Shown here: one piece after another, positions 3,351-33,575 of the stretch
How the letters are laid out: each line of letters starts with the position of its first letter
How positions within the stretch are numbered: the first letter of the stretch is position 1
DNA from: Eledone cirrhosa
Taxonomy: Eukaryota
Reading direction: 5' to 3'
NCBI GenBank assembly: GCA_964016885.1
Contig: OZ024749.1
Span: forward strand, 14,260,001 to 14,324,000
Length of the DNA stretch: 64,000 bases
Program-made: the position numbers and the translations under genes
The notes under the pieces: generated by a model
Databases searched by the model: none
Told to the model about the DNA's origin: nothing
Seen by the model: only the letters and a program-made list of their open reading frames with translations

Positions 3351-3903
3351 GTAGATAAATCTACCAAAAGTTTACGGTAGTGTCCAATCCGTATGAAGAA
3401 CTCAATGTAATCCGGATATCATGGAAAGAAGAGATGCATTCAAAAATCACTTTCGGTGAAAGATAAACGGAATACAGAGACAAGATAAAATATTAAAAAA
3501 ATAATGAATAAAACAATGAAACAGTTCCTTATATTAAACAAAAAAAGTTCATTATTTAACGATCGTTTCTAGGACATATATGTGTTAGAATTGGTATGCA
3601 TATTCAAAAGATCTATGTACAAAATTATACAAAATTATACAAACTATCAAATATAATATACATACCAACACATACATATGCCGTCTTCAGAAATAATGAT
3701 TATTTCTGAAGACGGCATATGTATGTGTTGGTATGTATATTATATTTGATAGTTTGTATAATTTTGTATAATTTTGTACATAGATCTTTTGAATATGCAT
3801 ACCAATTCTAACACATATATGTCCTAGAAACGATCGTTAAATAATGAACTTTTTTTGTTTAATATAAGGAACTGTTTCATTGTTTTATTCATTATTTTTT
3901 TTA

Positions 3904-3912
<9 letters not shown>
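3351..3912. mobile_element. Fold-back Penelope-like pLTR: ~213-bp near-perfect palindrome (3485-3912, centre 3698) with a one-sided extension (3351-3484)
   Basis: The arms are reverse complements around AAATAAT-G-ATTATTT and differ by one nt in a homopolymer. Both sides are flanked by (TA)n. Each arm contains a hammerhead motif. Confidence 0.85.
3699..3845 (+). ncRNA. Type I hammerhead ribozyme motif with a long stem II (mirror copy on the minus strand at 3551-3697)
   Basis: Stem I ATTATTT(3699-3705)/AAATAAT(3839-3845); core CTGAAGA (3706-3712); extended stem II; GAAA (3827-3830); palindromic stem III ACGATCGT; predicted cleavage after GTT at 3838. The base of stem II is imperfect. Confidence 0.7.
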
Positions 3913-5368: not shown

Positions 5369-5644
5369 GTATATATATATACATGTCTATATATATACAT
5401 GTGTATATATATACATGTGTATATATATACATGTGTATATATATATACATGTGTATATATATATACATGTGTATATATATATATACATGTATATATACGA
5501 AATTGAGCGTGGAATGGATAGAGAAAAATTTGTACTTTATATATATATATATATATGTATATGTATGTACTTTATACATATATATATATATGTATATGTA
5601 TGTGTGTGTGTGTATGTATGTATGTGTGTGCGTGTGTCTGTGTG

Positions 5645-6039: not shown

Positions 6040-6144
6040 GTATATATATATATATGTGCGTGAGAGAGAGAGTGTGTATATATATTTGTGTGTGTGTGTG
6101 TGTATGTGTGTATGCGTGTGTGTGTATGTATATATATATATGTA

Positions 6145-6189
<45 letters not shown>

Positions 6190-6305
6190 ATATATGTATA
6201 TGTGTGTGTATATATGCGTCATATGTCTGTGTATATATATGTGTATATTTATGTATAGGTCTGTGTATGTATGTGTATATTTGTATATGTATGGATATGT
6301 GTATG

Positions 6306-6336
<31 letters not shown>

Positions 6337-6443
6337 ATGTATAGATGTTTATACATATGCATGTGTATGTGTGTGTGTGTGTATATATATGTGTGTGTGT
6401 ATATATGTGTGTGCGTGTATATATATATATATATATATATGTG

Positions 6444-6484
<41 letters not shown>

Positions 6485-6708
6485 ATGTATGTATGTGTGT
6501 GTGTGTGTTTGTATGTGTATATATTTGTTTATGTGTGTGTATATATATATATTTATATATATATATATATATGTGTGTATGTGTATGTATGTATATAAGT
6601 ATGTGGTTATATATATGAATGTATATATATATATGTATTTGTGTATATATATATGTGTGTGTGTGTTTGTGTGTATGTGTGTGTATATATATATGTGTGT
6701 GTATGGGG

Positions 6709-6762
<54 letters not shown>

Positions 6763-6805
6763 GTGTGTGTGTGTGTGCATGTGTGTGTGTGTATGTATAT
6801 ATGTG

Positions 6806-6838
<33 letters not shown>

Positions 6839-7159
6839 GTATATGTGTATATGTATATGTATATATATATGTATACGTATGTGTGTGTATATATGTATGT
6901 GTATGTATGTATGTGTGTATGTGTGTATATATATATATATATGTATGTATATGTATATATATATATATATATATGTGTGTGTATATATATGTATGTATGT
7001 ATATATATATATATATATATTTGTGTATGTATATATGTCTATGTGTATTTGTGTGTATATACATGTATATTCGTGTTTGTATGTATGCGTGTGAGTGTAT
7101 TTATTTGTGTATATATATATGTGCGTGTGTGTGTATGTATGTGTATGTGTGTGTGTGTA

Positions 7160-7206
<47 letters not shown>

Positions 7207-7225
7207 ATATATGTGTATATATTTT

Positions 7226-7278
<53 letters not shown>

Positions 7279-7425
7279 TATATATGTATGTGTGTATGTA
7301 TGTCTGTATGTACGTGTGTGTACATGAATATATATTTATATATTTTTATATATATGTGTGTGTGTTTTTATGTGTGTATATGTGTTTGTGTGTGTGTGTG
7401 TTTATGGTTGCGCGTAAGTGTGTGA
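4369..7425. repeat. Compound (TA)n/(TATG)n/(TG)n microsatellite of ~3 kb
   Basis: Directly visible, with a ~40-bp non-repetitive island at 5498-5537. Confidence 0.97.
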
Positions 7426-7490
7426 GTGAGTATGTGTTTTTTTGTTTTTTTGTGAATGTGTCTGTTGATTTTTGGCATATAGTTGATTAG

Positions 7491-7990
7491 TTTAAGAGAA
7501 GTTCGAAGATAATAGTAAGATATGCACTCAGTATTTTGAATCTGTCTGCAGAATTCTCTAGACCTTTGTCACTTAGTAGAACCTTAATGACTTTAGCTTT
7601 TAAAGAATCTCCCTTTTCTTTAATTCTATCGACTATGACTGACCCCCCACTGATTTTATAGACATCTGTTAGCTTAAGAGAAACTTATTGACAAGGATTG
7701 GTAGGCCATCCGGAACCTGTTTATAGAATTCTGTCTGCCCTTGTTACTCTAAAAACATAAATAAATAAAAATAAAAATAAAAATAAAAATAAACTATAGC
7801 TTTGTAGAATTAGCTTTTAATGAATTCCCTTTTCTATCAACCAATGACCTGCACCCATCCCACTCCCCACCCTCTCCTACCACTTGTAGAGACCTATAAA
7901 TACCATATTTATTTTTTGATACCCAGATTCCTGATGATTTCAAATGAATGAAACAGTTCTAGTCCTGTAGAATCTCATCTATATTAAAAC
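7491..7990 (+). mobile_element. Penelope-like pLTR copy A (500 bp, hammerhead near the 3' end)
   Basis: Diverged direct repeat of 8788-9269. It ends ATATTAAAAC and runs into (TA)n. Confidence 0.8.
7925..7975 (+). ncRNA. Type I hammerhead ribozyme (copy A)
   Basis: Stem I AGATTC/GAATCT; core CTGATGA; stem II t-TTC-aaat-GAA-t; GAAA; stem III ACAG/CTGT; predicted cleavage after GTA at 7969. Confidence 0.8.
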
Positions 7991-8222
7991 TATGTATATG
8001 TATATATATATGTATGTATATGTATATATATGTATATGTATATATATGTATATGTATATATATGTATATATATGTATATGTATATATATGTATATATATA
8101 TATATGTATATATATGTATATGTATATATATGTATATGTATATATATGTATATATATATATATGTATGTATATGTATATATATGTATATGTATATATATG
8201 TATATGTATATGTATATATATG

Positions 8223-8291
<69 letters not shown>

Positions 8292-8308
8292 GTATATGTA
8301 TATATATG

Positions 8309-8343
<35 letters not shown>

Positions 8344-8350
8344 GTATATA
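7991..8350. repeat. (TATATG)-type microsatellite
   Basis: Directly visible. Confidence 0.97.
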
Positions 8351-8433
8351 CGTTATTCCGGGTTGAATCGGAGGTAACCACAGTAAGTAAGGTACTCAAT
8401 ACATAGCAGAGTATAACAGTTTTAATATAGATG

Positions 8434-8484
8434 AGATTCTACAGGACTAGAACTGTTTCATTCATTAGAAATCATCAGGAATCT
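8434..8484 (-). ncRNA. Type I hammerhead ribozyme (copy B, antisense)
   Basis: Reverse complement of 9204-9254. Confidence 0.8.
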
Positions 8485-9119
8485 GGGTATCATAAAATAA
8501 ATATGGTATTTATAGGTCTCTACAAGTGGTAGGAGAGGGTGGGGAGTGGGATGGGTGCAGGTCATTGGTTGATAGAGAAGGGAATTCATTAAAAGCTAAT
8601 TCTACATAGCTATAGTTAATTTATATTTATTTATGTTTTTAGAGTAACAAAGGCAGACAGAATTCTATAAACAGGTTCCGGATGGCATACCATTCCTTGT
8701 CAATAAGTTTCTCTTAAGCTAGCAGATGTCTATAAAATCAGTGGGGGGGTCATTCATGCTCAATAGAATTAAAGAAAAGGGAGATTCTTTAAGAGAAGTT
8801 CGAAGATAATAGTAAGATATGCACTCAGTATTTTGAATCTGTCTGCAGAATTCCCTAGACCTTTGTCACTTAGTAGAACCTTAATGACTTTAGCTTTTAA
8901 AGAATCTCCCTTTTCTTTAATTCTATCGAGCATGAATGACCCCCCACTGATTTTATAGACATCTGCTAGCTTAAGAGAAACTTATTGACAAGGAATGGTA
9001 TGCCATCCGGAACCTGTTTATAGAATTCTGTCTGCCTTTGTTACTCTAAAAACATAAATAAATATAAATTAACTATAGCTATGTAGAATTAGCTTTTAAT
9101 GAATTCCCTTCTCTATCAA

Positions 9120-9181
9120 CCAATGACCTGCACCCATCCCACTCCCCACCCTCTCCTACCACTTGTAGAGACCTATAAATA
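9120..9181 (+). promoter_or_regulatory. Putative Pol II promoter in the pLTR (CCAAT, CACCC, TATAAATA)
   Basis: CCAAT at 9120, CCCCACCC at about 9144 and TATAAATA at 9174-9181, which is 30 nt upstream of the hammerhead 5' end (9204). The same motifs occur in copies A and B. Confidence 0.5.
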
Positions 9182-9203
9182 CCATATTTATTTTTTGATA
9201 CCC

Positions 9204-9254
9204 AGATTCCTGATGATTTCTAATGAATGAAACAGTTCTAGTCCTGTAGAATCT
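9204..9254 (+). ncRNA. Type I hammerhead ribozyme (copy C)
   Basis: AGATTC-CTGATGA-tTTCtaatGAAt-GAAA-CAGttctagtcCTG-T-A-GAATCT; predicted cleavage after 9248. Confidence 0.8.
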
Positions 9255-9269
9255 CATCTATATTAAAAC

Positions 9270-11055
<1,786 letters not shown>

Positions 11056-11497
11056 TATTGGTAAACGGAATAGAAAATGCTGACAAATTGTTCACAGTTG
11101 AAAAATGGTTTAATTAGGAATAAAAGAGTATTAGTGATTGTATGGGTTAGTATTCAGTTGTGGTTTTAAGTTTTTAAGTTTTTACCGGTTGCGCATTTCT
11201 TGATTTACCGGTTGCATTTACCGGTTGCGCAATTTTGAGATAGAGTGTCCGTGCTGTTTGCTCTGAGCAAACAGCACGGACACTCTATCTCAAAATTATT
11301 TTTGAAAAGCATTTAGAAATGCGCAACCGGTAAAAACTTAAAAACTTAAAACCACAACTGAATACTAACCCATACAATCACTAATACTCTTTTATTCCTA
11401 ATTAAACCATTTTTCAACTGTGAACAATTTGTCAGCATTTTCTATTCCGTTTACCAATATATAATAACTTGTGTGTTACACCTCTATTCTTTTAACT
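11056..11497. mobile_element. Nested fold-back element (Penelope-like): outer arms ~11056-11200/11315-11459, inner 33-bp hairpin 11231-11297, tail 11460-11497
   Basis: Reverse-complement arms are directly visible and the element is flanked by TA microsatellites. A variant hammerhead-like motif lies at 11299-11335. Confidence 0.75.
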
Positions 11498-13321
<1,824 letters not shown>

Positions 13322-14620: not shown

Positions 14621-17600
14621 TCAACTTTCCAACACCCTTCTTAGAATTCTGGCTGGTCCCAGTAAGGCTGTTTTCTGCAACAATCCTGTCCTGATGGTAA
14701 TTCCTATCTTCTCAAGCCAGGCACCAACCTTCTACTAACTGATCCCAGTGTACCAAACACAGTCGGTACCACTTCCAGATGTCTAACCTTCTACTAACTT
14801 CTCCCAGTGTACCAACCACAGTCGGTACCACTTCTACATGTCTAACCTTCTACTAACTGCTCCCAGTATACCAACCACAATTGGTACCACTTCTACATGT
14901 CTAACCTTCTACTAACTGCTCCCAGTATACCAACCACAATTGGTACCACTTCTACATGTCTAACCTTCTACTAACTGCTCCCAGTATACCAACCACAATT
15001 GGTACCACTTCTACATGTCTAACCTTCTACTAACTGCTCCCAGTATACCAACCACAATTGGTACCACTTCTACATGTCTAACCTTCTACTAACTGCTCCC
15101 AGTATACCAACCACAATTGGTACCACTTCTACATGTCTAACCTTCTACTAACTGCTCCCAGTGTACCAACCACAGTCGGTACCACTTCTACATGTCTAAC
15201 CTTCTACTAACTGCTCCCAGTGTACCAACCACAATTGGTACCACTTCCAGATGTCTAACCTTCTACTAACTTCTCCCAGTGTACCAACCACAGTCGGTAC
15301 CACTTCTACATGTCTAACCTTCTACTAACTGCTCCCAGTATACCAACCACAATTGGTACCACTTCTACATGTCTAACCTTCTACTAACTGCTCCCAGTAT
15401 ACCAACCACAATTGGTACCACTTCTACATGTCTAACCTTCTACTAACTGCTCCCAGTGTACCAACCACAGTCGGTACCACTTCTACATGTCTAACCTTCT
15501 ACTAACTGCTCCCAGTGTACCAACCATAATCGGTACCACTTCTACATGTCTAACCTTCTACTAACTGCTCCCAGTGTACCAACCACAGTCGGTACCACTT
15601 CTACATGTCTAACCTTCTAACTTCTCCCAGTGTACCAACCACAGTCGGTACCACTTCTAGATGTCTAACCTTCTACTAACTGCTCCCAGTGTACCAACCA
15701 CAGTCGGTACCACTTCTACATGTCTAACCTTCTAACTTCTCCCAGTACACCAACTACAATTGGTACCACTTCTACATGTCTAACCTTCTAACTTCTCCCA
15801 GTGTACCAACCACAGTCGGTACCACTTCTACATGTCTAACCTTCTAACTTCTCCCAGTGTACCAACCACAGTCGGTACCACTTCTACATGTCTAACCTTC
15901 TACTAACTGCTCCCAGTGTACCAACCACAGTCGGTACCACTTCTACATGTCCAACCTTCTAACTTCTCCCAGTGTACCAACCACAGTCGGTACCACTTCT
16001 ACATGTCTAACCTTCTACTAACTGCTCCCAGTACACCAACCACAGTCGGTACCACTTCTACATGTCTAACCTTCTACTAACTGCTCCCAGTACACCAACC
16101 ACAGTCGGTACCACTTCTACATGTCTAACCTTCTATTAACTGCTCCCAGTACACCAACCACAGTCGGTACCACTTCTACACGTCTAACCTTCTAACTTCT
16201 CCCAGTGTACCAACCACAGTCGGTACCACTTCTACATGTCTAACCTTCTACTAACTGCTCCCAGTACACCAACCACAGTCGGTACCACTTCTACATGTCT
16301 AACCTTCTATTAACTGCTCCCAGTACACCAACCACAGTCGGTACCACTTCTACACGTCTAACCTTCTAACTTCTCCCAGTACACCAACCACAGTCGGTAC
16401 CACTTCTACACGTCTAACCTTCTAACTTCTCTCAGTACACCAACCACAATTGGTACCACTTCTACATGTCTAACCTTCTACTAACTTCTCCCAGTGTACC
16501 AACCACAGTCGGTACCACTTCTACATGTCTAACCTTCTACTAACTTCTCCCAGTGTACCTACCACAGTCGCTACCACTTCTACATGTCTAACCTTCTACT
16601 AACTGCTCCCAGTACACCAACCACAGTCGGTACCACTTCTACATGTCTAACCTTCTACTAACTGCTCCCAGTACACCAACCACAGTCAGTACCACTTCTA
16701 CATGTCTAACCTTCTACTAACTGCTCCCAGTGTACCAACTACAATTGGTACCACTTCTACGTGTCTGATTCTCCAGTTTCCTGACTTCTCTCTTCAACTC
16801 CTGGTATTTCTCAACTTTCACATTTCCCCTCTCATCCACCTTGTGGTCCCATGGTGAAGCAATATCCACAATATATACCTTGTTATTCTTCTTTTCTACA
16901 ACAACAATGTCAGGCTTTCTAGCCATGATAAAATGGTCACAGTGGATGGTCATGTCCCACAAGACATATAATGTTCATTTTGAGCCACCCTTTCTGGTTG
17001 GTGTTCATAGCATTTCTACCTTCTGCTCATGTCATACTTATGACAGAGGTTCCAGTGAACCAATCTGACAATGTTGTCGTGCCTTCTCTAGTACTCTTTC
17101 TCAGCAAACATCTTACATTCAGTAATAATGTGGTTTATTGTCTCACCTTTCTCACCAGACAGCCTACAAAGTGGGGAATTCACTGATTTGTCAATATTGA
17201 ACTTAATATAGTTTGTTTTTAGTGCCTGTTCCTGGGCTGCAAAAATAAGGGCCTCGGATTCAACGTTTAAGTCACTTTTCGTAGTCCATTCCCAGTTTCC
17301 ATCTTTGTCAACTGCCTCAGACATTTTACGTATGAATTGACCATACATTTTTCTTCCATCTATTCAATGTGTCATTCTGTCTGTCTTGTTTAAATTCTCC
17401 CTTTTCTTTTGTTTCATCCCTGTTTAGGACCTTTATCTTCTTACTCCTGCCATCAATCTCTCCTTTGAATTCTTTACAAACCATCCCAGATTATATTCCT
17501 CCAACTTCATACATATTTCACAGCTAATGAGACCTCTTCCTCCTTTCTGTTGTGATAGATACAACCTGTCCACGTCACTTTTAGGGTGTAGAGCCCCTTG

Positions 17601-17730
17601 TAGTGTCATCATTTTGCTGGTATTTCTACCAAGCTCCTTAAGTTCATCACATCTCCACTCTATCACACCAGCAATATATAGTAGCACTGCAACAGCCCAT
17701 CTGTTGGATGCCAGTACCTTATTCCTACCA
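14621..17730 (-). pseudogene. Degenerate C-terminal ORF (post-RT region, CCHC knuckle, PD-(D/E)xK endonuclease) of the R4/Dong-like LINE
   Basis: ORF fragments 17433-17687, 17088-17348 and 16717-16962 are separated by stops and frameshifts, and the ORF is interrupted by the 59-bp array. Confidence 0.88.
14726..16766. repeat. 59-bp tandem array (~35 copies, some 55-bp variants) derived from the LINE endonuclease coding region
   Basis: Unit AACCTTCTACTAACTGCTCCCAGTGTACCAACCACAGTCGGTACCACTTCTACATGTCT; its minus strand corresponds to RHVEVVP[I/T]VVGTLGAVSRR. Confidence 0.97.
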
Positions 17731-20700
17731 CTCTATCACACCAGCACTATACTGTAGCACTGCAACAGCCCATGTGTTGGATGCCAGTACCTTATTCCTA
17801 CCACTCTATCACACCAGTGCTATACTGTAGCACTGCAACAGCCCATGTGTTGGATGCCAGTACCTTATTCCTACCACTCTATCACACCAGCACTATACTG
17901 TAGCACTGCAACAGCCCATGTGTTGGATGCCAGTACCTTATTCCTACCACTCTATCACACCAGTGCTATACTGTAGCATTGCAACAGCCCATGTGTTAGA
18001 TGCCAGTACCTTATTCCTACCACTCTATCACACCAGCACTATACTGTAGCACTGCAACAGCCCATGTGTTGGATGCCAGTACCTTATTCCTACCACTCTA
18101 TCACACCAGTGCTATACTGTAGCACTGCAACAGCCCATGTGTTGGATGCCAGTACCTTATTCCTACCACTCTATCACACCAGTGCTATACTGTAGCACTG
18201 CAACAGCCCATGTGTTGGATGCCAGTACCTTATTCCTACCACTCTATCACACCAGCGCTATACTGTAGCACTGCAACAGCCCATGTGTTGGATGCCAGTA
18301 CCTTATTCCTACCACTCTATCACACCAGCACTATACTGTAGCACTGCAACAGCCCATGTGTTGGATGCCAGTACCTTATTCCTACCACTCTATCACACCA
18401 GCACTATACTGTAGCACTGCAACAGCCCATGTGTTGGATGCCAGTACCTTATTCCTACCACTCTATCACACCAGTGCTATACTGTAGCACTGCAACAGCC
18501 CATCTGTTGGATGCCAGTACCTTATTCCTACCACTCTATCACACCAGCACTATACTGTAGCACTGCAACAGCCCATCTGTTGGATGCCAGTACCTTATTC
18601 CTACCACTCTATCACACCAGCACTATACTGTAGCATTGCAACAGCCCATGTGTTGGATGCCAGTACCTTATTCCTACCACTCTATCACACCAGTGCTATA
18701 CTGTAGCACTGCAACAGCCCATCTGTTGGATGCCAGTACCTTATTCCTACCACTCTATCACACCAGCACTATACTGTAGCATTGCAACAGCCCATGTGTT
18801 GGATGCCAGTACCTTATTCCTACCACTCTATCACACCAGTGCTATACTGTAGCACTGCAACAGCCCATCTGTTGGATGCCAGTACCTTATTCCTACCACT
18901 CTATCACACCAGTGCTATACTGTAGCACTGCAACAGCCCATCTGTTGGATGCCAATACCTTATTCCTACCACTCTATCACACCAGCACTATACTGTAGCA
19001 CTGCAACAGCCCATCTGTTGGATGCCAGTACCTTATTCCTACCACTCTATCACACCAGTGCTATACTGTAGCACTGCAACAGCCCATCTGTTGGATGCCA
19101 GTACCTTATTCCTACCACTCTATCACACCAGCGCTATACTGTAGCACTGCAACAGCCCATCTGTTGGATGCCAGTACCTTATTCCTACCACTCTATCACA
19201 CCAGTGCTATACTGTAGCACTGCAACAGCCCATGTGTTGGATGCCAGTACCTTATTCCTACCACTCTATCACACCAGCGCTATACTGTAGCACTGCAACA
19301 GCCCATGTGTTGGATGCCAGTACCTTATTCCTACCACTCTATCACACCAGCACTATACTGTAGCACTGCAACAGCCCATGTGTTGGATGCCAGTACCTTA
19401 TTCCTACCACTCTATCACACCAGCACTATACTGTAGCACTGCAACAGCCCATGTGTTGGATGCCAGTACCTTATTCCTACCACTCTATCACACCAGTGCT
19501 ATACTGTAGCACTGCAACAGCCCATCTGTTGGATGCCAGTACCTTATTCCTACCACTCTATCACACCAGCACTATACTGTAGCACTGCAACAGCCCATCT
19601 GTTGGATGCCAGTACCTTATTCCTACCACTCTATCACACCAGCACTATACTGTAGCATTGCAACAGCCCATGTGTTGGATGCCAGTACCTTATTCCTACC
19701 ACTCTATCACACCAGTGCTATACTGTAGCACTGCAACAGCCCATCTGTTGGATGCCAGTACCTTATTCCTACCACTCTATCACACCAGCACTATACTGTA
19801 GCATTGCAACAGCCCATGTGTTGGATGCCAGTACCTTATTCCTACCACTCTATCACACCAGTGCTATACTGTAGCACTGCAACAGCCCATCTGTTGGATG
19901 CCAGTACCTTATTCCTACCACTCTATCACACCAGTGCTATACTGTAGCACTGCAACAGCCCATCTGTTGGATGCCAATACCTTATTCCTACCACTCTATC
20001 ACACCAGCACTATACTGTAGCACTGCAACAGCCCATCTGTTGGATGCCAGTACCTTATTCCTACCACTCTATCACACCAGTGCTATACTGTAGCACTGCA
20101 ACAGCCCATCTGTTGGATGCCAGTACCTTATTCCTACCACTCTATCACACCAGCGCTATACTGTAGCACTGCAACAGCCCATCTGTTGGATGCCAGTACC
20201 TTATTCCTACCACTCTATCACACCAGTGCTATACTGTAGCACTGCAACAACCCATGTGTTGGATGCCAGTACCTTATTCCTACCACTCTATCACACCAGC
20301 ACTATACTGTAGCACTGCAACAACCCATGTGTTGGATGCCAGTACCTTATTCCTACCACTCTATCACACCAGTGCTATACTGTAGCACTGCAACAGCCCA
20401 TGTGTTGGATGCCAGTACCTTATTCCTACCACTCTATCACACCAGCACTATACTGTAGCACTGCAACAGCCCATCTGTTGGATGCCAGTACCTTATTCCT
20501 ATGACTCTATCACACCAGCACTATACTGTAGCACTGCAACAGCCCATCTGTTGGATGCCAGTACCTTATTCCTACCACTCTATCACACCAGCGCTATACT
20601 GTAGCACTGCAACAGCCCATCTGTTGGATGCCAGTACCTTATTCCTACCTCTCTATCACACCAGCACTATACTGTAGCACTGCAACAGCCCATCTGTTGG

Positions 20701-23700
20701 ATGCCAGTACCTTATTCCTACCACTCTATCACACCAGCACTATACTGTAGTACTGCAACAGCCCATCTGTTGGATGCCAGTACCTTATTCCTACCACTCT
20801 ATCACACCAGCACTATACTGTAGTACTGCAACAGCCCATCTGTTGGATGCCAGTACCTTATTCCTACCACTCTATCACACCAGCACTATACTGTAGTACT
20901 GCAACAACCCATCTGTTGGATGCCAGTACCTTATTCCTACCACTCTATCACACCAGCACTATACTGTAGTACTGCAACAGCCCATCTGTTGGATGCCAGT
21001 ACCTTATTCCTACCACTCTATCACACCAGCGCTATACTGTAGCACTGCAACAGCCCATCTGTTGGATGCCAGTACCTTATTCCTACCACTCTATCACACC
21101 AGCACTATACTGTAGCACTGCAACAACCCATGTGTTGGATGCCAATACCTTATTCCTACCACTCTATCACACCAGCAATATATAGTAGCACTGCAACAGC
21201 CCATCTGTTGGATGCCAGTACCTTATTCCTACCACTCTATCACACCAGCACTATACTGTAGTACTGCAACAGCCCATCTGTTGGATGCCAGTACCTTATT
21301 CCTACCACTCTATCACACCAGCACTATACTGTAGTACTGCAACAGCCCATCTGTTGGATGCCAGTACCTTATTCCTACCACTCTATCACACCAGTGCTAT
21401 ACTGTAGCACTGCAACAGCCCATGTGTTGGATGCCAGTACCTTATTCCTACCACTCTATCACACCAGTGCTATACTGTAGCATTGCAACAGCCCATGTGT
21501 TGGATGCCAGTACCTTATTCCTACCACTCTATCACACCAGTGCTATACTGTAGCACTGCAACAGCCCATGTGTTGGATGCCAGTACCTTATTCCTACCAC
21601 TCTATCACACCAGTGCTATACTGTAGCACTGCAACAGCCCATCTGTTGGATGCCAGTACCTTATTCCTACCACTCTATCACACCAGCGCTATACTGTAGC
21701 ACTGCAACAGCCCATCTGTTGGATGCCAGTACCTTATTCCTACCACTCTATCACACCAGTGCTATACTGTAGCACTGCAACAGCCCATCTGTTGGATGCC
21801 AGTACCTTATTCCTACCACTCTATCACACCAGTGCTATACTGTAGCACTGCAACAGCCCATCTGTTGGATGCCAGTACCTTATTCCTACCACTCTATCAC
21901 ACCAGCACTATACTGTAGCACTGCAACAGCCCATGTGTTGGATGCCAGTACCTTATTCCTACCACTCTATCACACCAGCACTATACTGTAGCACTGCAAC
22001 AGCCCATCTGTTGGATGCCAGTACCTTATTCCTACCACTCTATCACACCAGCACTATACTGTAGCACTGCAACAGCCCATCTGTTGGATGCCAGTACCTT
22101 ATTCCGACCACTCTATCACACCAGCGCTATACTGTAGCACTGCAACAGCCCATCTGTTGGATGCCAGTACCTTATTCCTACCACTCTATCACACCAGCGC
22201 TATACTGTAGCACTGCAACAGCCCATCTGTTGGATGCCAGTACCTTATTCCTACCACTCTATCACACCAGCACTATACTGTAGCACTGCAACAGCCCATG
22301 TGTTGGATGCCAGTACCTTATTCCTACCACTCTATCACACCAGCACTATACTGTAGCACTGCAACAGCCCATCTGTTGGATGCCAGTACCTTATTCCTAC
22401 CACTCTATCACACCAGCACTATACTGTAGCACTGCAACAGCCCATCTGTTGGATGCCAGTACCTTATTCCGACCACTCTATCACACCAGCGCTATACTGT
22501 AGCACTGCAACAGCCCATCTGTTGGATGCCAGTACCTTATTCCTACCACTCTATCACACCAGCGCTATACTGTAGCACTGCAACAGCCCATCTGTTGGAT
22601 GCCAGTACCTTATTCCTACCACTCTATCACACCAGCACTATACTGTAGCACTGCAACAGCCCATCTGTTGGATGCCAGTACCTTATTCCTACCACTCTAT
22701 CACACCAGCGCTATACTGTAGCACTGCAACAGCCCATCTGTTGGATGCCAGTACCTTATTCCTACCACTCTATCACACCAGCGCTATACTGTAGCACTGC
22801 AACAGCCCATGTGTTGGATGCCAGTACCTTATTCCTACCACTCTATCACACCAGCACTATACTGTAGCACTGCAACAGCCCATCTGTTGGATGCCAGTAC
22901 CTTATTCCTACCACTCTATCACACCAGCACTATACTGTAGCACTGCAACAGCCCATCTGTTGGATGCCAGTACCTTATTCCTACCACTCTATCACACCAG
23001 TGCTATACTGTAGCACTGCAACAGCCCATCTGTTGGATGCCAGTAGCTTATTCCTACCACTCTATCACACCAGCACTATACTGTAGCACTGCAACAGCCC
23101 ATCTGTTGGATGCCAGTACCTTATTCCGACCACTCTATCACACCAGCACTATACTGTAGCACTGCAACAGCCCATGTGTTGGATGCCAGTACCTTATTCC
23201 TACCACTCTATCACACCAGCACTATACTGTAGCACTGCAACAGCCCATCTGTTGGATGCCAGTACCTTATTCCGACCACTCTATCACACCAGTGCTATAC
23301 TGTAGCACTGCAACAGCCCATCTGTTGGATGCCAGTACCTTATTCCTACCACTCTATCACACCAGCACTATACTGTAGCACTGCAACAGCCCATCTGTTG
23401 GATGCCAGTACCTTATTCCTACCACTCTATCACACCAGCACTATACTGTAGCACTGCAACAGCCCATCTGTTGGATGCCAGTACCTTATTCCTACCACTC
23501 TATCACACCAGCACTATACTGTAGCACTGCAACAGCCCATCTGTTGGATGCCAGTACCTTATTCCGACCACTCTATCACACCAGCACTATACTGTAGCAC
23601 TGCAACAGCCCATGTGTTGGATGCCAGTACCTTATTCCTACCACTCTATCACACCAGCACTATACTGTAGCACTGCAACAGCCCATCTGTTGGATGCCAG

Positions 23701-26700
23701 TACCTTATTCCGACCACTCTATCACACCAGTGCTATACTGTAGCACTGCAACAGCCCATCTGTTGGATGCCAGTACCTTATTCCTACCACTCTATCACAC
23801 CAGCACTATACTGTAGCACTGCAACAGCCCATCTGTTGGATGCCAGTACCTTATTCCTACCACTCTATCACACCAGCACTATACTGTAGCACTGCAACAG
23901 CCCATCTGTTGGATGCCAGTACCTTATTCCTACCACTCTATCACACCAGCGCTATACTGTAGCACTGCAACAGCCCATGTGTTGGATGCCAGTACCTTAT
24001 TCCTACCACTCTATCACACCAGCGCTATACTGTAGCACTGCAACAGCCCATCTGTTGGATGCCAGTACCTTATTCCTACCACTCTATCACACCAGCGCTA
24101 TACTGTAGCACTGCAACAGCCCATCTGTTGGATGCCAGTACCTTATTCCTACCACTCTATCACACCAGTGCTATACTGTAGCACTGCAACAGCCCATCTG
24201 TTGGATGCCAGTACCTTATTCCGACCACTCTATCACACCAGTGCTATACTGTAGCACTGCAACAGCCCATCTGTTGGATGCCAGTACCTTATTCCTACCA
24301 CTCTATCACACCAGTGCTATACTGTAGCACTGCAACAGCCCATCTGTTGGATGCCAGTACCTTATTCCGACCACTCTATCACACCAGCACTATACTGTAG
24401 CACTGCAACAGCCCATCTGTTGGATGCCAGTACCTTATTCCTACCTCTCTATCACACCAGTGCTATACTGTAGCACTGCAACAGCCCATGTGTTGGATGC
24501 CAGTACCTTATTCCGACCACTCTATCACACCAGTGCTATACTGTAGCACTGCAACAGCCCATCTGTTGGATGCCAGTACCTTATTCCGACCACTCTATCA
24601 CACCAGTGCTATACTGTAGCACTGCAACAGCCCATCTGTTGGATGCCAGTACCTTATTCCTACCACTCTATCACACCAGCACTATACTGTAGCACTGCAA
24701 CAGCCCATCTGTTGGATGCCAGTACCTTATTCCTACCACTCTATCACACCAGCGCTATACTGTAGCACTGCAACAGCCCATGTGTTGGATGCCAGTACCT
24801 TATTCCTACCACTCTATCACACCAGCGCTATACTGTAGCACTGCAACAGCCCATCTGTTGGATGCCAGTACCTTATTCCTACCACTCTATCACACCAGTG
24901 CTATACTGTAGCACTGCAACAGCCCATCTGTTGGATGCCAGTACCTTATTCCGACCACTCTATCACACCAGTGCTATACTGTAGCACTGCAACAGCCCAT
25001 CTGTTGGATGCCAGTACCTTATTCCTACCACTCTATCACACCAGTGCTATACTGTAGCACTGCAACAGCCCATCTGTTGGATGCCAGTACCTTATTCCGA
25101 CCACTCTATCACACCAGCACTATACTGTAGCACTGCAACAGCCCATCTGTTGGATGCCAGTACCTTATTCCTACCTCTCTATCACACCAGTGCTATACTG
25201 TAGCACTGCAACAGCCCATGTGTTGGATGCCAGTACCTTATTCCGACCACTCTATCACACCAGTGCTATACTGTAGCACTGCAACAGCCCATCTGTTGGA
25301 TGCCAGTACCTTATTCCGACCACTCTATCACACCAGTGCTATACTGTAGCACTGCAACAGCCCATCTGTTGGATGCCAGTACCTTATTCCTACCACTCTA
25401 TCACACCAGCACTATACTGTAGCACTGCAACAGCCCATCTGTTGGATGCCAGTACCTTATTCCTACCACTCTATCACACCAGCACTATACTGTAGCACTG
25501 CAACAGCCCATCTGTTGGATGCCAGTACCTTATTCCGACCACTCTATCACACCAGCACTATACTGTAGCACTGCAACAGCCCATCTGTTGGATGCCAGTA
25601 CCTTATTCCTACCACTCTATCACACCAGCACTATACTGTAGCACTGCAACAGCCCATCTGTTGGATGCCAGTACCTTATTCCGACCACTCTATCACACCA
25701 GTGCTATACTGTAGCACTGCAACAGCCCATCTGTTGGATGCCAGTACCTTATTCCTACCACTCTATCACACCAGCACTATACTGTAGCACTGCAACAGCC
25801 CATCTGTTGGATGCCAGTACCTTATTCCTACCACTCTATCACACCAGCACTATACTGTAGCACTGCAACAGCCCATGTGTTGGATGCCAGTACCTTATTC
25901 CTACCACTCTATCACACCAGCACTATACTGTAGCACTGCAACAGCCCATGTGTTGGATGCCAGTACCTTATTCCTACCACTCTATCACACCAGCACTATA
26001 CTGTAGCACTGCAACAGCCCATGTGTTGGATGCCAGTACCTTATTCCTACCACTCTATCACACCAGCACTATACTGTAGCACTGCAACAGCCCATCTGTT
26101 GGATGCCAGTACCTTATTCCTACCACTCTATCACACCAGCACTATACTGTAGCACTGCAACAGCCCATCTGTTGGATGCCAGTACCTTATTCCTACCACT
26201 CTATCACACCAGCGCTATACTGTAGCACTGCAACAACCCATGTGTTGGATGCCAGTACCTTATTCCTACCACTCTATCACACCAGCGCTATACTGTAGCA
26301 CTGCAACAGCCCATCTGTTGGATGCCAGTACCTTATTCCTACCACTCTATCACACCAGCACTATACTGTAGCACTGCAACAGCCCATCTGTTGGATGCCA
26401 GTACCTTATTCCTACCACTCTATCACACCAGCGCTATACTGTAGCACTGCAACAGCCCATCTGTTGGATGCCAGTACCTTATTCCTACCACTCTATCACA
26501 CCAGCACTATACTGTAGCACTGCAACAGCCCATCTGTTGGATGCCAGTACCTTATTCCTACCACTCTATCACACCAGCACTATACTGTAGCACTGCAACA
26601 GCCCATCTGTTGGATGCCAGTACCTTATTCCTACCACTCTATCACACCAGCACTATACTGTAGCACTGCAACAGCCCATCTGTTGGATGCCAGTACCTTA

Positions 26701-29700
26701 TTCCTACCACTCTATCACACCAGCGCTATACTGTAGCACTGCAACAACCCATGTGTTGGATGCCAATACCTTATTCCTACCACTCTATCACACCAGCACT
26801 ATACTGTAGCACTGCAACAGCCCATCTGTTGGATGCCAGTACCTTATTCCTACCACTCTATCACACCAGCGCTATACTGTAGCACTGCAACAGCCCATGT
26901 GTTGGATGCCAGTACCTTATTCCTACCACTCTATCACACCAGCGCTATACTGTAGCACTGCAACAGCCCATGTGTTGGATGCCAGTACCTTATTCCTACC
27001 ACTCTATCACACCAGTGCTATACTGTAGCACTGCAACAGCCCATCTGTTGGATGCCAGTACCTTATTCCTACCTCTCTATCACACCAGTGCTATACTGTA
27101 GCACTGCAACAGCCCATGTGTTGGATGCCAGTACCTTATTCCGACCACTCTATCACACCAGTGCTATACTGTAGCACTGCAACAGCCCATCTGTTGGATG
27201 CCAGTACCTTATTCCTACCACTCTATCACACCAGTGCTATACTGTAGCACTGCAACAGCCCATCTGTTGGATGCCAGTACCTTATTCCTACCACTCTATC
27301 ACACCAGCACTATACTGTAGCACTGCAACAGCCCATCTGTTGGATGCCAGTACCTTATTCCTACCACTCTATCACACCAGCACTATACTGTAGCACTGCA
27401 ACAGCCCATCTGTTGGATGCCAGTACCTTATTCCTACCACTCTATCACACCAGCACTATACTGTAGCACTGCAACAGCCCATCTGTTGGATGCCAGTACC
27501 TTATTCCGACCACTCTATCACACCAGCACTATACTGTAGCACTGCAACAGCCCATGTGTTGGATGCCAGTACCTTATTCCTACCACTCTATCACACCAGC
27601 ACTATACTGTAGCACTGCAACAGCCCATCTGTTGGATGCCAGTACCTTATTCCGACCACTCTATCACACCAGTGCTATACTGTAGCACTGCAACAGCCCA
27701 TCTGTTGGATGCCAGTACCTTATTCCTACCACTCTATCACACCAGCACTATACTGTAGCACTGCAACAGCCCATCTGTTGGATGCCAGTACCTTATTCCT
27801 ACCACTCTATCACACCAGCACTATACTGTAGCACTGCAACAGCCCATCTGTTGGATGCCAGTACCTTATTCCTACCACTCTATCACACCAGCGCTATACT
27901 GTAGCACTGCAACAGCCCATGTGTTGGATGCCAGTACCTTATTCCTACCACTCTATCACACCAGCGCTATACTGTAGCACTGCAACAGCCCATCTGTTGG
28001 ATGCCAGTACCTTATTCCTACCACTCTATCACACCAGCGCTATACTGTAGCACTGCAACAGCCCATCTGTTGGATGCCAGTACCTTATTCCTACCACTCT
28101 ATCACACCAGTGCTATACTGTAGCACTGCAACAGCCCATCTGTTGGATGCCAGTACCTTATTCCGACCACTCTATCACACCAGTGCTATACTGTAGCACT
28201 GCAACAGCCCATCTGTTGGATGCCAGTACCTTATTCCTACCACTCTATCACACCAGTGCTATACTGTAGCACTGCAACAGCCCATCTGTTGGATGCCAGT
28301 ACCTTATTCCGACCACTCTATCACACCAGCACTATACTGTAGCACTGCAACAGCCCATCTGTTGGATGCCAGTACCTTATTCCTACCTCTCTATCACACC
28401 AGTGCTATACTGTAGCACTGCAACAGCCCATGTGTTGGATGCCAGTACCTTATTCCGACCACTCTATCACACCAGTGCTATACTGTAGCACTGCAACAGC
28501 CCATCTGTTGGATGCCAGTACCTTATTCCGACCACTCTATCACACCAGTGCTATACTGTAGCACTGCAACAGCCCATCTGTTGGATGCCAGTACCTTATT
28601 CCTACCACTCTATCACACCAGCACTATACTGTAGCACTGCAACAGCCCATCTGTTGGATGCCAGTACCTTATTCCTACCACTCTATCACACCAGCGCTAT
28701 ACTGTAGCACTGCAACAGCCCATGTGTTGGATGCCAGTACCTTATTCCTACCACTCTATCACACCAGCGCTATACTGTAGCACTGCAACAGCCCATCTGT
28801 TGGATGCCAGTACCTTATTCCTACCACTCTATCACACCAGTGCTATACTGTAGCACTGCAACAGCCCATCTGTTGGATGCCAGTACCTTATTCCGACCAC
28901 TCTATCACACCAGTGCTATACTGTAGCACTGCAACAGCCCATCTGTTGGATGCCAGTACCTTATTCCTACCACTCTATCACACCAGTGCTATACTGTAGC
29001 ACTGCAACAGCCCATCTGTTGGATGCCAGTACCTTATTCCGACCACTCTATCACACCAGCACTATACTGTAGCACTGCAACAGCCCATCTGTTGGATGCC
29101 AGTACCTTATTCCTACCTCTCTATCACACCAGTGCTATACTGTAGCACTGCAACAGCCCATGTGTTGGATGCCAGTACCTTATTCCGACCACTCTATCAC
29201 ACCAGTGCTATACTGTAGCACTGCAACAGCCCATCTGTTGGATGCCAGTACCTTATTCCGACCACTCTATCACACCAGTGCTATACTGTAGCACTGCAAC
29301 AGCCCATCTGTTGGATGCCAGTACCTTATTCCGACCACTCTATCACACCAGCACTATACTGTAGCACTGCAACAGCCCATCTGTTGGATGCCAGTACCTT
29401 ATTCCTACCACTCTATCACACCAGCACTATACTGTAGCACTGCAACAGCCCATGTGTTGGATGCCAGTACCTTATTCCGACCACTCTATCACACCAGTGC
29501 TATACTGTAGCACTGCAACAGCCCATCTGTTGGATGCCAGTACCTTATTCCGACCACTCTATCACACCAGTGCTATACTGTAGCACTGCAACAGCCCATC
29601 TGTTGGATGCCAGTACCTTATTCCTACCACTCTATCACACCAGCACTATACTGTAGCACTGCAACAGCCCATGTGTTGGATGCCAGTACCTTATTCCTAC

Positions 29701-32700
29701 CACTCTATCACACCAGCACTATACTGTAGCACTGCAACAGCCCATGTGTTGGATGCCAGTACCTTATTCCTACCACTCTATCACACCAGCACTATACTGT
29801 AGCACTGCAACAGCCCATCTGTTGGATGCCAGTACCTTATTCCTACCACTCTATCACACCAGCACTATACTGTAGCACTGCAACAGCCCATGTGTTGGAT
29901 GCCAGTACCTTATTCCTACCACTCTATCACACCAGCACTATACTGTAGCACTGCAACAGCCCATGTGTTGGATGCCAGTACCTTATTCCTACCACTCTAT
30001 CACACCAGCACTATACTGTAGCACTGCAACAGCCCATCTGTTGGATGCCAGTACCTTATTCCTACCACTCTATCACACCAGCACTATACTGTAGCACTGC
30101 AACAGCCCATCTGTTGGATGCCAGTACCTTATTCCTACCACTCTATCACACCAGCGCTATACTGTAGCACTGCAACAACCCATGTGTTGGATGCCAGTAC
30201 CTTATTCCTACCACTCTATCACACCAGCGCTATACTGTAGCACTGCAACAGCCCATCTGTTGGATGCCAGTACCTTATTCCTACCACTCTATCACACCAG
30301 CACTATACTGTAGCACTGCAACAGCCCATCTGTTGGATGCCAGTACCTTATTCCTACCACTCTATCACACCAGCGCTATACTGTAGCACTGCAACAGCCC
30401 ATCTGTTGGATGCCAGTACCTTATTCCTACCACTCTATCACACCAGCACTATACTGTAGCACTGCAACAGCCCATCTGTTGGATGCCAGTACCTTATTCC
30501 TACCACTCTATCACACCAGCACTATACTGTAGCACTGCAACAGCCCATCTGTTGGATGCCAGTACCTTATTCCTACCACTCTATCACACCAGCACTATAC
30601 TGTAGCACTGCAACAGCCCATCTGTTGGATGCCAGTACCTTATTCCTACCACTCTATCACACCAGCGCTATACTGTAGCACTGCAACAACCCATGTGTTG
30701 GATGCCAATACCTTATTCCTACCACTCTATCACACCAGCACTATACTGTAGCACTGCAACAGCCCATCTGTTGGATGCCAGTACCTTATTCCTACCACTC
30801 TATCACACCAGCGCTATACTGTAGCACTGCAACAGCCCATGTGTTGGATGCCAGTACCTTATTCCTACCACTCTATCACACCAGCGCTATACTGTAGCAC
30901 TGCAACAGCCCATGTGTTGGATGCCAGTACCTTATTCCTACCACTCTATCACACCAGTGCTATACTGTAGCACTGCAACAGCCCATCTGTTGGATGCCAG
31001 TACCTTATTCCTACCTCTCTATCACACCAGTGCTATACTGTAGCACTGCAACAGCCCATGTGTTGGATGCCAGTACCTTATTCCGACCACTCTATCACAC
31101 CAGTGCTATACTGTAGCACTGCAACAGCCCATCTGTTGGATGCCAGTACCTTATTCCGACCACTCTATCACACCAGTGCTATACTGTAGCACTGCAACAG
31201 CCCATCTGTTGGATGCCAGTACCTTATTCCTACCACTCTATCACACCAGCACTATACTGTAGCACTGCAACAGCCCATCTGTTGGATGCCAGTACCTTAT
31301 TCCTACCACTCTATCACACCAGCACTATACTGTAGCACTGCAACAGCCCATCTGTTGGATGCCAGTACCTTATTCCTACCACTCTATCACACCAGCACTA
31401 TACTGTAGCACTGCAACAGCCCATCTGTTGGATGCCAGTACCTTATTCCTACCACTCTATCACACCAGCACTATACTGTAGCACTGCAACAGCCCATCTG
31501 TTGGATGCCAGTACCTTATTCCTACCACTCTATCACACCAGCACTATACTGTAGCACTGCAACAGCCCATCTGTTGGATGCCAGTACCTTATTCCTACCA
31601 CTCTATCACACCAGCACTATACTGTAGCACTGCAACAGCCCATCTGTTGGATGCCAGTACCTTATTCCTACCACTCTATCACACCAGCACTATACTGTAG
31701 CACTGCAACAGCCCATCTGTTGGATGCCAGTACCTTATTCCTACCACTCTATCACACCAGCACTATACTGTAGCACTGCAACAGCCCATCTGTTGGATGC
31801 CAGTACCTTATTCCTACCACTCTATCACACCAGTGCTATACTGTAGCACTGCAACAGCCCATCTGTTGGATGCCAGTACCTTATTCCTACCACTCTATCA
31901 CACCAGCGCTATACTGTAGCACTGCAACAGCCCATCTGTTGGATGCCAGTACCTTATTCCTACCACTCTATCACACCAGTGCTATACTGTAGCACTGCAA
32001 CAGCCCATCTGTTGGATGCCAGTACCTTATTCCTACCTCTCTATCACACCAGTGCTATACTGTAGCACTGCAACAGCCCATCTGTTGGATGCCAGTACCT
32101 TATTCCTACCACTCTATCACACCAGCACTATACTGTAGCACTGCAACAGCCCATCTGTTGGATGCCAGTACCTTATTCCTACCACTCTATCACACCAGTG
32201 CTATACTGTAGCACTGCAACAGCCCATCTGTTGGATGCCAGTACCTTATTCCTACCACTCTATCACACCAGTGCTATACTGTAGCACTGCAACAGCCCAT
32301 CTGTTGGATGCCAGTACCTTATTCCTACCACTCTATCACACCAGCGCTATACTGTAGCACTGCAACAGCCCATCTGTTGGATGCCAGTACCTTATTCCTA
32401 CCACTCTATCACACCAGTGCTATACTGTAGCACTGCAACAGCCCATCTGTTGGATGCCAGTACCTTATTCCTACCACTCTATCACACCAGCGCTATACTG
32501 TAGCACTGCAACAGCCCATCTGTTGGATGCCAGTACCTTATTCCTACCACTCTATCACACCAGCGCTATACTGTAGCACTGCAACAGCCCATGTGTTGGA
32601 TGCCAGTACCTTATTCCTACCTCTCTATCACACCAGTGCTATACTGTAGCACTGCAACAGCCCATCTGTTGGATGCCAGTACCTTATTCCTACCACTCTA

Positions 32701-33575
32701 TCACACCAGTGCTATACTGTAGCACTGCAACAGCCCATCTGTTGGATGCCAGTACCTTATTCCTACCTCTCTATCACACCAGTGCTATACTGTAGCACTG
32801 CAACAGCCCATCTGTTGGATGCCAGTACCTTATTCCTACCACTCTATCACACCAGCACTATACTGTAGCACTGCAACAGCCCATCTGTTGGATGCCAGTA
32901 CCTTATTCCTACCACTCTATCACACCAGCACTATACTGTAGCACTGCAACAGCCCATCTGTTGGATGCCAGTACCTTATTCCTACCACTCTATCACACCA
33001 GCACTATACTGTAGCACTGCAACAGCCCATCTGTTGGATGCCAGTACCTTATTCCTACCACTCTATCACACCAGCACTATACTGTAGCACTGCAACAGCC
33101 CATCTGTTGGATGCCAGTACCTTATTCCTACCACTCTATCACACCAGCACTATACTGTAGCACTGCAACAGCCCATCTGTTGGATGCCAGTACCTTATTC
33201 CTACCACTCTATCACACCAGCACTATACTGTAGCACTGCAACAGCCCATCTGTTGGATGCCAGTACCTTATTCCTACCACTCTATCACACCAGCACTATA
33301 CTGTAGCACTGCAACAGCCCATCTGTTGGATGCCAGTACCTTATTCCTACCACTCTATCACACCAGCACTATACTGTAGCACTGCAACAGCCCATCTGTT
33401 GGATGCCAGTACCTTATTCCTACCACTCTATCACACCAGCACTATACTGTAGCACTGCAACAGCCCATCTGTTGGATGCCAGTACCTTATTCCTACCACT
33501 CTATCACACCAGCACTATACTGTAGCACTGCAACAACCCATCTGTTGGATGCCAGTACCTTTTTCCTACCACTCT
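17655..33575. repeat. 73-bp satellite (~218 copies, 15.9 kb) derived from the 5'-most part of the truncated LINE
   Basis: Unit CCACTCTATCACACCAGCACTATACTGTAGCACTGCAACAGCCCATCTGTTGGATGCCAGTACCTTATTCCTA; its minus strand reads SGRNKVLASNRWAVAVLQYSAGVIEW. Confidence 0.98.

Follow-up and report, generated by a model that had tools for sequence, protein, structure and literature searches.

Among described systems, the closest to the repeat analysed here are Penelope-like elements (PLEs) of the Hydra clade, as defined by Craig et al. 2021 (PMC8557442). The Poseidon PLE of Anolis (PAc; Frangieh et al. 2024, PMC11167929) is a second point of reference, for which two start sites of reverse transcription and nicking of both target strands have been demonstrated in vitro. 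Non-LTR retrozymes, with a unit length of 170–400 nt (PMC7229834), likewise carry a type I hammerhead ribozyme of PLE origin; a recent survey (bioRxiv 10.64898/2026.07.22.740005) reports units of 51–972 bp in at most 300 repeats, and argues for this origin from trees. Opposite-strand hammerheads 100–700 bp apart have already been noted in PLE-rich genomes (PMC4209133). How the inverted ends of PLEs are formed and what role the hammerhead plays are stated as open in the accounts of both the Hydra clade (PMC8557442) and PAc (PMC11167929).

We analysed a stretch of 64,000 nucleotides from Eledone cirrhosa, hereafter the window, in which three hammerhead motifs lie within one locus. These motifs are very probably the ends of a Hydra-clade PLE, likely left when the element inserted twice, separately, into a TA microsatellite, first as a truncated copy, A, and more recently as a fold-back, B+C. 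The locus itself is ordinary, holding three of more than 16,000 element ends of a known kind of element. Its features, in window coordinates, are as follows.

2462–2541, no strand: decayed mini fold-back belonging to an older sister family that has GAAGCC as the 3′ strand of stem I; 83–85% identical to the unit's end.
6056–7490, plus strand: microsatellite-like 3′ UTR of copy A, with four landmark words in the order seen in the 3′ UTR of loci L037 and L190; its start lies at or left of 6056.
7491–7990, plus strand: copy A, a pLTR end of the loop-II AAAT subfamily, sharing substitutions with copy L056; short outer end, then (TA)n.
7895–7902, plus strand: TATAAATA box, 30 nt before stem I of A, a likely promoter.
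7925–7975, plus strand: hammerhead motif (type I) of copy A, with the putative RNA start at 7925 and cleavage predicted after 7969.
7991–8350, no strand: (TA)n/(TATG)n tract of 360 bp separating the two insertions.
8349–8417, minus strand: tail of arm B, ~69 nt, with which the element's 5′ UTR begins; this long outer end is followed by (TA)n.
8418–8795, minus strand: arm B, an inverted part of the pLTR; TATA box 8514–8507, hammerhead 8484–8434, predicted cut after 8440.
8788–8792, no strand: TTTAA microhomology joining arms B and C, five nucleotides common to both parental sequences.
8788–9269, plus strand: arm C, part of the pLTR, of the young TAAT subfamily (40 scored matches at 99–100%); short outer end; TATA box 9174–9181, hammerhead 9204–9254, predicted cut after 9248.
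9270–13321, no strand: long (TA)n-type tract flanking C, from trf.

Pairwise alignment located the three pLTR copies, in a +/−/+ arrangement, where the first-pass annotation of this DNA had placed them. B is 98.9% identical to C over 378 nt and corresponds to positions 107–482 of the unit, and A is 93.7% identical to C, one 16-nt indel included. The same annotation had described a unit of ~500 bp, which is indeed repeated sequence but no natural unit, its left edge being the point at which C is truncated. Since A runs on upstream of 7491 as the 3′ UTR of the element, reaching at least 6056, 500 bp is simply the truncation length of C. B runs on at its outer end into the element tail, which is identical over 70 of 70 nt to the stretch between pLTR and ORF in L037.

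Elsewhere in the window, a near-perfect palindrome of 428 bp (3485–3912; 99%) has ends that resemble the end word of the Penelope-like family but point inward, and its arm recurs in at least six other examined loci; it is probably a fold-back of a different family. A 50-nt unique island within the TA tract (5496–5545), near the presumed left edge of A, has no match among the other examined loci. Satellites with periods of 59, 73 and 27 bp occupy 14726–16766, 17655–33575 and 35730–64000, respectively, and the first two interrupt what appears by eye to be a decayed LINE on the minus strand at 14.5–17.7 kb.

All three copies carry AGATTC-CTGATGA-T-TTC-(4)-GAA-T-GAA-ACAG-(8)-CTGT-A-GAATCT, with stem I starting at 7925 in A, 9204 in C and 8484(−) in B, and H17 at 7969, 9248 and 8440(−), respectively. 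The motif comprises a 6-bp stem I, CUGAUGA, a U·U pair, a 3-bp stem II, GAAA and a 4-bp stem III with an 8-nt loop, the predicted cleavage triplet being GUA. This is the CUGANGA, GAAA and UH core of a type I hammerhead together with its three stems, and the earlier description of three complete motifs, with cuts predicted after 7969 and 9248, is borne out by the sequence. An exact search of the genome with a 30-mer from the ribozyme gives 16,662 matches, against none for its reversed control; because of these counts, and because stem I changes on both sides between families, we do not regard the motif as a chance occurrence. The Rfam check proposed in the first-pass annotation gave no hammerhead: a search with 7450–7995 returned two weak, unrelated matches, and there is no hammerhead among the 150 of 187 matches listed for the whole window.

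Like the published Hydra-clade elements (PMC8557442), the family has a type I hammerhead near the 3′ end with ACAG/CUGU as stem III and, as is often the case in that clade, a U·U pair closing stem II. This pair had been called non-canonical, yet a count by eye finds the same U·U in 14 of the 26 Hydra-clade rows of the published table. The 8-nt loop III with its central CUAG, in contrast, differs from the loops of 1–3 nt that can be read by eye in those 26 rows. Judged from the sequences compared, the U·U pair is common in the clade and the long loop III is a variant of this family. The G10.1–C11.1 pair is absent, stem II being closed by U·U and then U-A, and no tertiary motif between loops I and II was recognised. 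In A and C, stem I can also be folded in a longer form (UUUUGAUA/UAUUAAAA), yet we do not claim it, since its 5′ strand differs in sister families and lies upstream of the putative RNA start.

Sister families in the same genome (6,344 matches) keep the core, with variation in loop II and N7, and across families the stem I pairs are AGATTC/GAATCT, AGCTTC/GAAGCT and GGCTTC/GAAGCC. In eight aligned copies from three families, 104 of 104 cells are paired and two of the six stem I pairs have changed on both sides; the covariation among genomic copies on which the earlier reading had been staked is thus seen in stem I, in eight hand-picked, related rows that represent few independent events. Stems II and III are invariant in these rows, stem III being fixed by the search pattern. 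At eight of 30 loci (L257–L261, L265, L270 and L281; C1, 0.35–19 Mb), a sister-family half-hammerhead with identical flanks is carried inside another, amplified repeat. Furthermore, at least two other repeat families (L227–L256) have CUGANGA-U...U-GAAAC cores with other stems, and one of them may cut at a site outside the search pattern used.

The family is a young and very abundant Penelope-like retrotransposon with more than 16,000 ends in a genome of 3.0 Gb, and C alone has 40 full-length matches at 99–100% identity among the 40 scored of 1290 candidates. Among 20 flanking stretches examined around family copies, L037 holds a whole element, consisting of an inverted arm with tail, a pLTR, an ORF of 712 aa, a microsatellite-like 3′ UTR of ~2 kb (L037:4925–6980), a second pLTR and (TA)n. 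The pLTR with hammerhead, the inverted truncated copy and the tail at one end are all present in it, the latter two as in the Hydra clade, and for most of the 100 listed arms the outer end adjoins TA repeats, resembling the (TA)n targets of that clade (PMC8557442). The pLTR hammerheads hence belong, as the first-pass annotation had surmised, to a Penelope-like element, and the autonomous parent that it had called for, with reverse transcriptase (RT) and a putative GIY-YIG nuclease, was found in L037.

The single ORF encodes a telomerase-like RT by motif (YRDD) and by predicted structure, the model having a pLDDT of 92.5 and, as its top five Foldseek matches, telomerase RTs (TERT; E 3e-9 to 8e-8). 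It has 595 homologues at E ≤ 1e-10, and an RT 30-mer has 241 matches in the genome. Applying the motif definition of PMC8557442, we located RWR at 37, DKT at 115, CNCLNKEAC (CxCx5C) at 565, CDLC (CxxC) at 665 and CMH (CxH) at 693, with key residues kept in 99–100 of 100 aligned sequences. The C-terminus shows Y...YIG at 583–603, in which Y and G are invariant, and no CCHH. Pfam and PDB sequence searches with the ORF returned no match, and Pfam on 11 homologues a single GIY-YIG match (1/11), below threshold; motif and clade together point to a C-terminal domain of GIY-YIG type. Naiad, our first guess, was rejected, as the nuclease motifs lie at the C-terminus and those of the Hydra clade fit.

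Judged by its motifs, the parent is very probably a Hydra-clade PLE, sharing with the published members a single ORF of RT and putative C-terminal endonuclease with RW[K/R], DKT, CxCx5C and CxxC/CxH and without CCHH (PMC8557442). It differs from them, as far as they are described, in its length of ~4.8 kb in L037, owing to the repeat-rich 2-kb UTR, where published elements are generally shorter than ~3 kb, a descriptive and not a diagnostic trait. Further differences are its more than 16,000 ends, mostly in ~200-bp fold-backs, a TATA box at −30, and a tail of 69 nt where 30–40 nt have been published for PLEs.

Within the window, A and C differ by 13 substitutions, 11 of which A shares with copy L056 on another chromosome (C1), and B, which covers 12 of these sites, equals C at every one. 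The loop II variant of A, AAAT, occurs in ~200 copies genome-wide (217 matches of the variant pattern), often in inverted pairs of its own kind, while the B–C junction has one match in the whole genome. By these sequence differences, A and B/C belong to different subfamilies. The first-pass annotation had taken A–B–C for one cassette, the RNA of which would be cut at A and C, circularised and propagated as a retrozyme-like circle of 1279 nt (7970–9248). A and C do form direct repeats at exactly this distance, each with its motif intact, and A's own TATA box could start such a transcript. However, a 1279-nt retrozyme is unlikely because A is of another subfamily, the B–C junction is unique and B would block C by pairing: in a plus-strand RNA, B precedes C, and in the predicted fold the hammerhead of C is fully paired with this antisense copy. 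The 360-bp TA tract between A and B also speaks against a single cassette. Moreover, retrozymes are head-to-tail repeats of ~170–400 nt (PMC7229834), whereas the window locus runs +/−/+ with 1279 nt from A to C, is not head-to-tail and, with one genome match for B–C, is not a unit copied elsewhere; +/−/+ trios occur at two places in the first 100 C1 matches, with arms that differ in length or subfamily. We consider the cassette highly improbable. A long hairpin RNA from B–C is possible if the locus is transcribed.

It is just as improbable that A, B and C arose together, in one complex insertion or local duplication. They do lie within 1.8 kb, and a search of the window and of the 20 kb upstream revealed no partner arm for A, which leaves the left half of A unaccounted for. 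Such a common origin is, however, opposed by the differences that A shares with a copy on another chromosome, by the match of B to C, and by loop II, which is identical in both arms of close pairs with both loops intact.

Taken as one of two separate insertions, B+C is a standard insertion of the family in (TA)n, with B tailed to 8349 and C short-ended, back to back and joined over five nucleotides. In a census of the first 100 exact 30-mer matches on C1, 56 arms had a short outer end, 38 a long one with the 69-nt tail, three ran into the ORF and three ended otherwise, the two fixed outer ends lying at +67 and +136, counted from where stem I begins. Close inverted pairs among these matches consisted of one long and one short arm in 21 of 24 cases and never of two long arms; in the remaining three, one arm resembles, by eye, a tail with an internal deletion. 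All of a further 20 inverted pairs (20/20) were long plus short. At L035:3638–6719, two 5′-truncated ORFs stand back to back with overlapping starts, a fold-back geometry with 4-kb arms.

Our analysis makes it fairly likely that such insertions arise from two cDNAs primed at opposite nicks in (TA)n. The RT-endonuclease would nick both strands of the target, and each nick would prime reverse transcription from one of two internal sites on the element RNA; both cDNAs would copy through the uncut ribozyme, and their 3′ ends would then be joined by microhomology. For B+C, the template RNA would have begun further upstream, with synthesis stopping after ~375 and ~480 nt. In most genomic copies, the cDNAs would stop at the first base of stem I, the likely capped start of the pLTR TATA promoter. 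Twin priming of L1 also yields an inverted insertion by two priming events with a microhomology joint; here, in contrast, a single stretch of RNA would be copied by both primers, starting at two fixed internal sites, and the product would for that reason be a palindrome.

We infer this manner of priming because cutting of both strands and two RT start sites have been shown in another PLE, PAc (PMC11167929). As proposed here, PAc takes uncut RNA as template, cuts and extends both strands of the target, and has its tail set by two RT start sites. PAc differs in belonging to another clade and in its ORF, which begins inside the hammerhead and not, as in the present family, 185 nt after the hammerhead's first base; also, the available account of PAc describes no pile-up of cDNA ends at stem I.

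The position at which the cDNAs stop is sharply defined. Sixty-three of the first 100 arms on C1 end no more than 27 nt upstream of the 30-mer, that is, inside or at the edge of the ribozyme, and 33 end 19–23 nt upstream, stem I beginning at 21, with none at 24–26. One exact junction at stem I is present at 537 loci and in two subfamilies (three and seven of the loci listed), and thus arose on more than one occasion. The unit contains a single TATAWAWR, 30 nt upstream of where stem I begins; the first base of stem I falls within an Inr-like YYANWYY, and the two together occurred in one of 20,000 shuffles. Subfamilies differ in their spacers but keep the TATA box 28–33 nt from stem I, at 30 nt in 90 of 99 arms; the underlying table counts only arms that have a TATA box, and the merging of overlapping loci in it is incomplete. 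Of the arms in which the genomic C ahead of stem I is replaced, 76 among the first 100 of 2,536 matches have G there, in some cases on both arms of a pair. One fold-back in a diverged subfamily, L101, runs 6–7 nt past stem I. From the 33 arms that end where stem I begins, the TATA box 30 nt upstream and the frequent extra G, we place the RNA start at the ribozyme; the first base of stem I is probably the capped transcription start of the pLTR TATA promoter.

The pile-up might also be produced by the cDNA snapping back, or jumping, between the strands of stem I and so ending synthesis, with no transcription start involved. Snap-back letters are found at some junctions (L102, L103 and L185), the sister family shows jumps between the repeats of stem I (L289 and L294), and in the present family snap-back also adds a G, which makes the extra G ambiguous there. 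For the sister family, however, it predicts T or A before stem I, yet G stands there in 70 of the first 100 of 1,337 matches. Although seven of 16 sampled G's in that family could derive from the partner arm through microhomology, about nine of the 15 sampled cases unexplained by it are G (by eye; p ~0.001 at a background of 20%). Snap-back also leaves the TATA box at −30 and the Inr match unexplained, and we regard it as unlikely. A promoter-driven start at stem I may be specific to this lineage, since Drosophila Penelope is reported to be TATA-less (PMC2377424) and no TATA at −30 is evident by eye in the published Hydra consensi. We found no prior statement of an RNA start at hammerhead stem I in the part of the literature covered by our search.

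With such a start, the ribozyme of the parent would cut 45 nt after the beginning of the RNA and again in the 3′ pLTR, probably as a dimer or with the help of protein. We are inclined to think that it serves the parent in this predicted way, giving a unit-length, possibly circular RNA; at the window locus, the hammerhead motifs are probably passengers. Alternatively, the motif could be kept as a protein-binding or promoter-proximal structure that hardly cleaves in vivo. The cDNAs read through the cut site in all family arms, and the monomer hammerhead is not the minimum-energy fold, with predicted stem pair probabilities of 0.01–0.13. PLE hammerheads have cleaved poorly in vitro (PMC4209133), and for PAc, hammerhead mutants are reported to be without effect on in vitro insertion and no read ends to occur at the hammerhead site (PMC11167929). 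Nevertheless, the core sequence is conserved amid variation in N7, loop II and stem I, with compensatory changes in the latter, part of the core being fixed by the search patterns; and the stem III region, with CUAG at the centre of its loop, is predicted to pair with itself as a dimer at −13.4 kcal/mol, compared to −1.7 kcal/mol as a hairpin. We consider such a barely cleaving structure rather unlikely.

A strand excess (5,821 versus 2,816) led us to C28, where ~30,496,750–30,873,740 is a satellite of ~377 kb made of 78-bp head-to-tail units, each with a whole hammerhead motif of the TAAA subfamily. All 15 stretches at which it was sampled (L193–L194, L199–L207 and L223–L226) hold units, which would number ~4,800 if the array is continuous. 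On the left the array starts at an ordinary fold-back insertion, with tail, in (TA)n, and it breaks off mid-unit. Core and stems are kept in 460 of 885 sampled units; there is no sign of selection on the ribozyme within the array, the core being 2.1% variable compared to 2.2–3.0% for the loops. Of the two runs examined among five, X1, possibly the assembly's own source, has the 78-bp tandem joint in its contigs, a result that bears on presence only.

With complete hammerheads in consecutive tandem units, the C28 array fits the tandem-repeat definition of non-LTR retrozymes, and its ~4,800 units of 78 bp compare to a maximum of 300 units in the survey of 35 genomes (bioRxiv 10.64898/2026.07.22.740005). 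The literature covered, which was partial, yielded no published hammerhead satellite of this kind. Directly after the satellite, at L226:1732–2893, lies a repeat of retrozyme size (422 bp, 2.8 copies) with a different type I hammerhead-like motif, closed by U·U and with a palindromic ACTAGT stem III (by eye).

Taken as a whole, the reading that we propose has, in our judgement, an even chance of being right: the mRNA would start at its own hammerhead, which removes a capped leader of 45 nt; both primers would copy to the cap and the cDNAs be joined, giving the inverted ends of PLEs and thousands of ~200-bp palindromes; and one such event would have seeded the ~4,800-unit satellite. A young family with an intact ORF, in which two fixed start sites leave one long and one short arm per insertion and cDNAs stop sharply at stem I behind a TATA box, provides a genomic record of PLE integration, with exact positions that can be tested in vitro and by CAGE. 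Through its ~2-kb (TA)/(TG) 3′ UTR, the element spreads part of the genome's microsatellite content. The 377-kb hammerhead satellite speaks directly for the origin from PLEs that has been proposed for non-LTR retrozymes and, if our reading holds true, would be a retrozyme-like array caught together with its parent and its birth junction.
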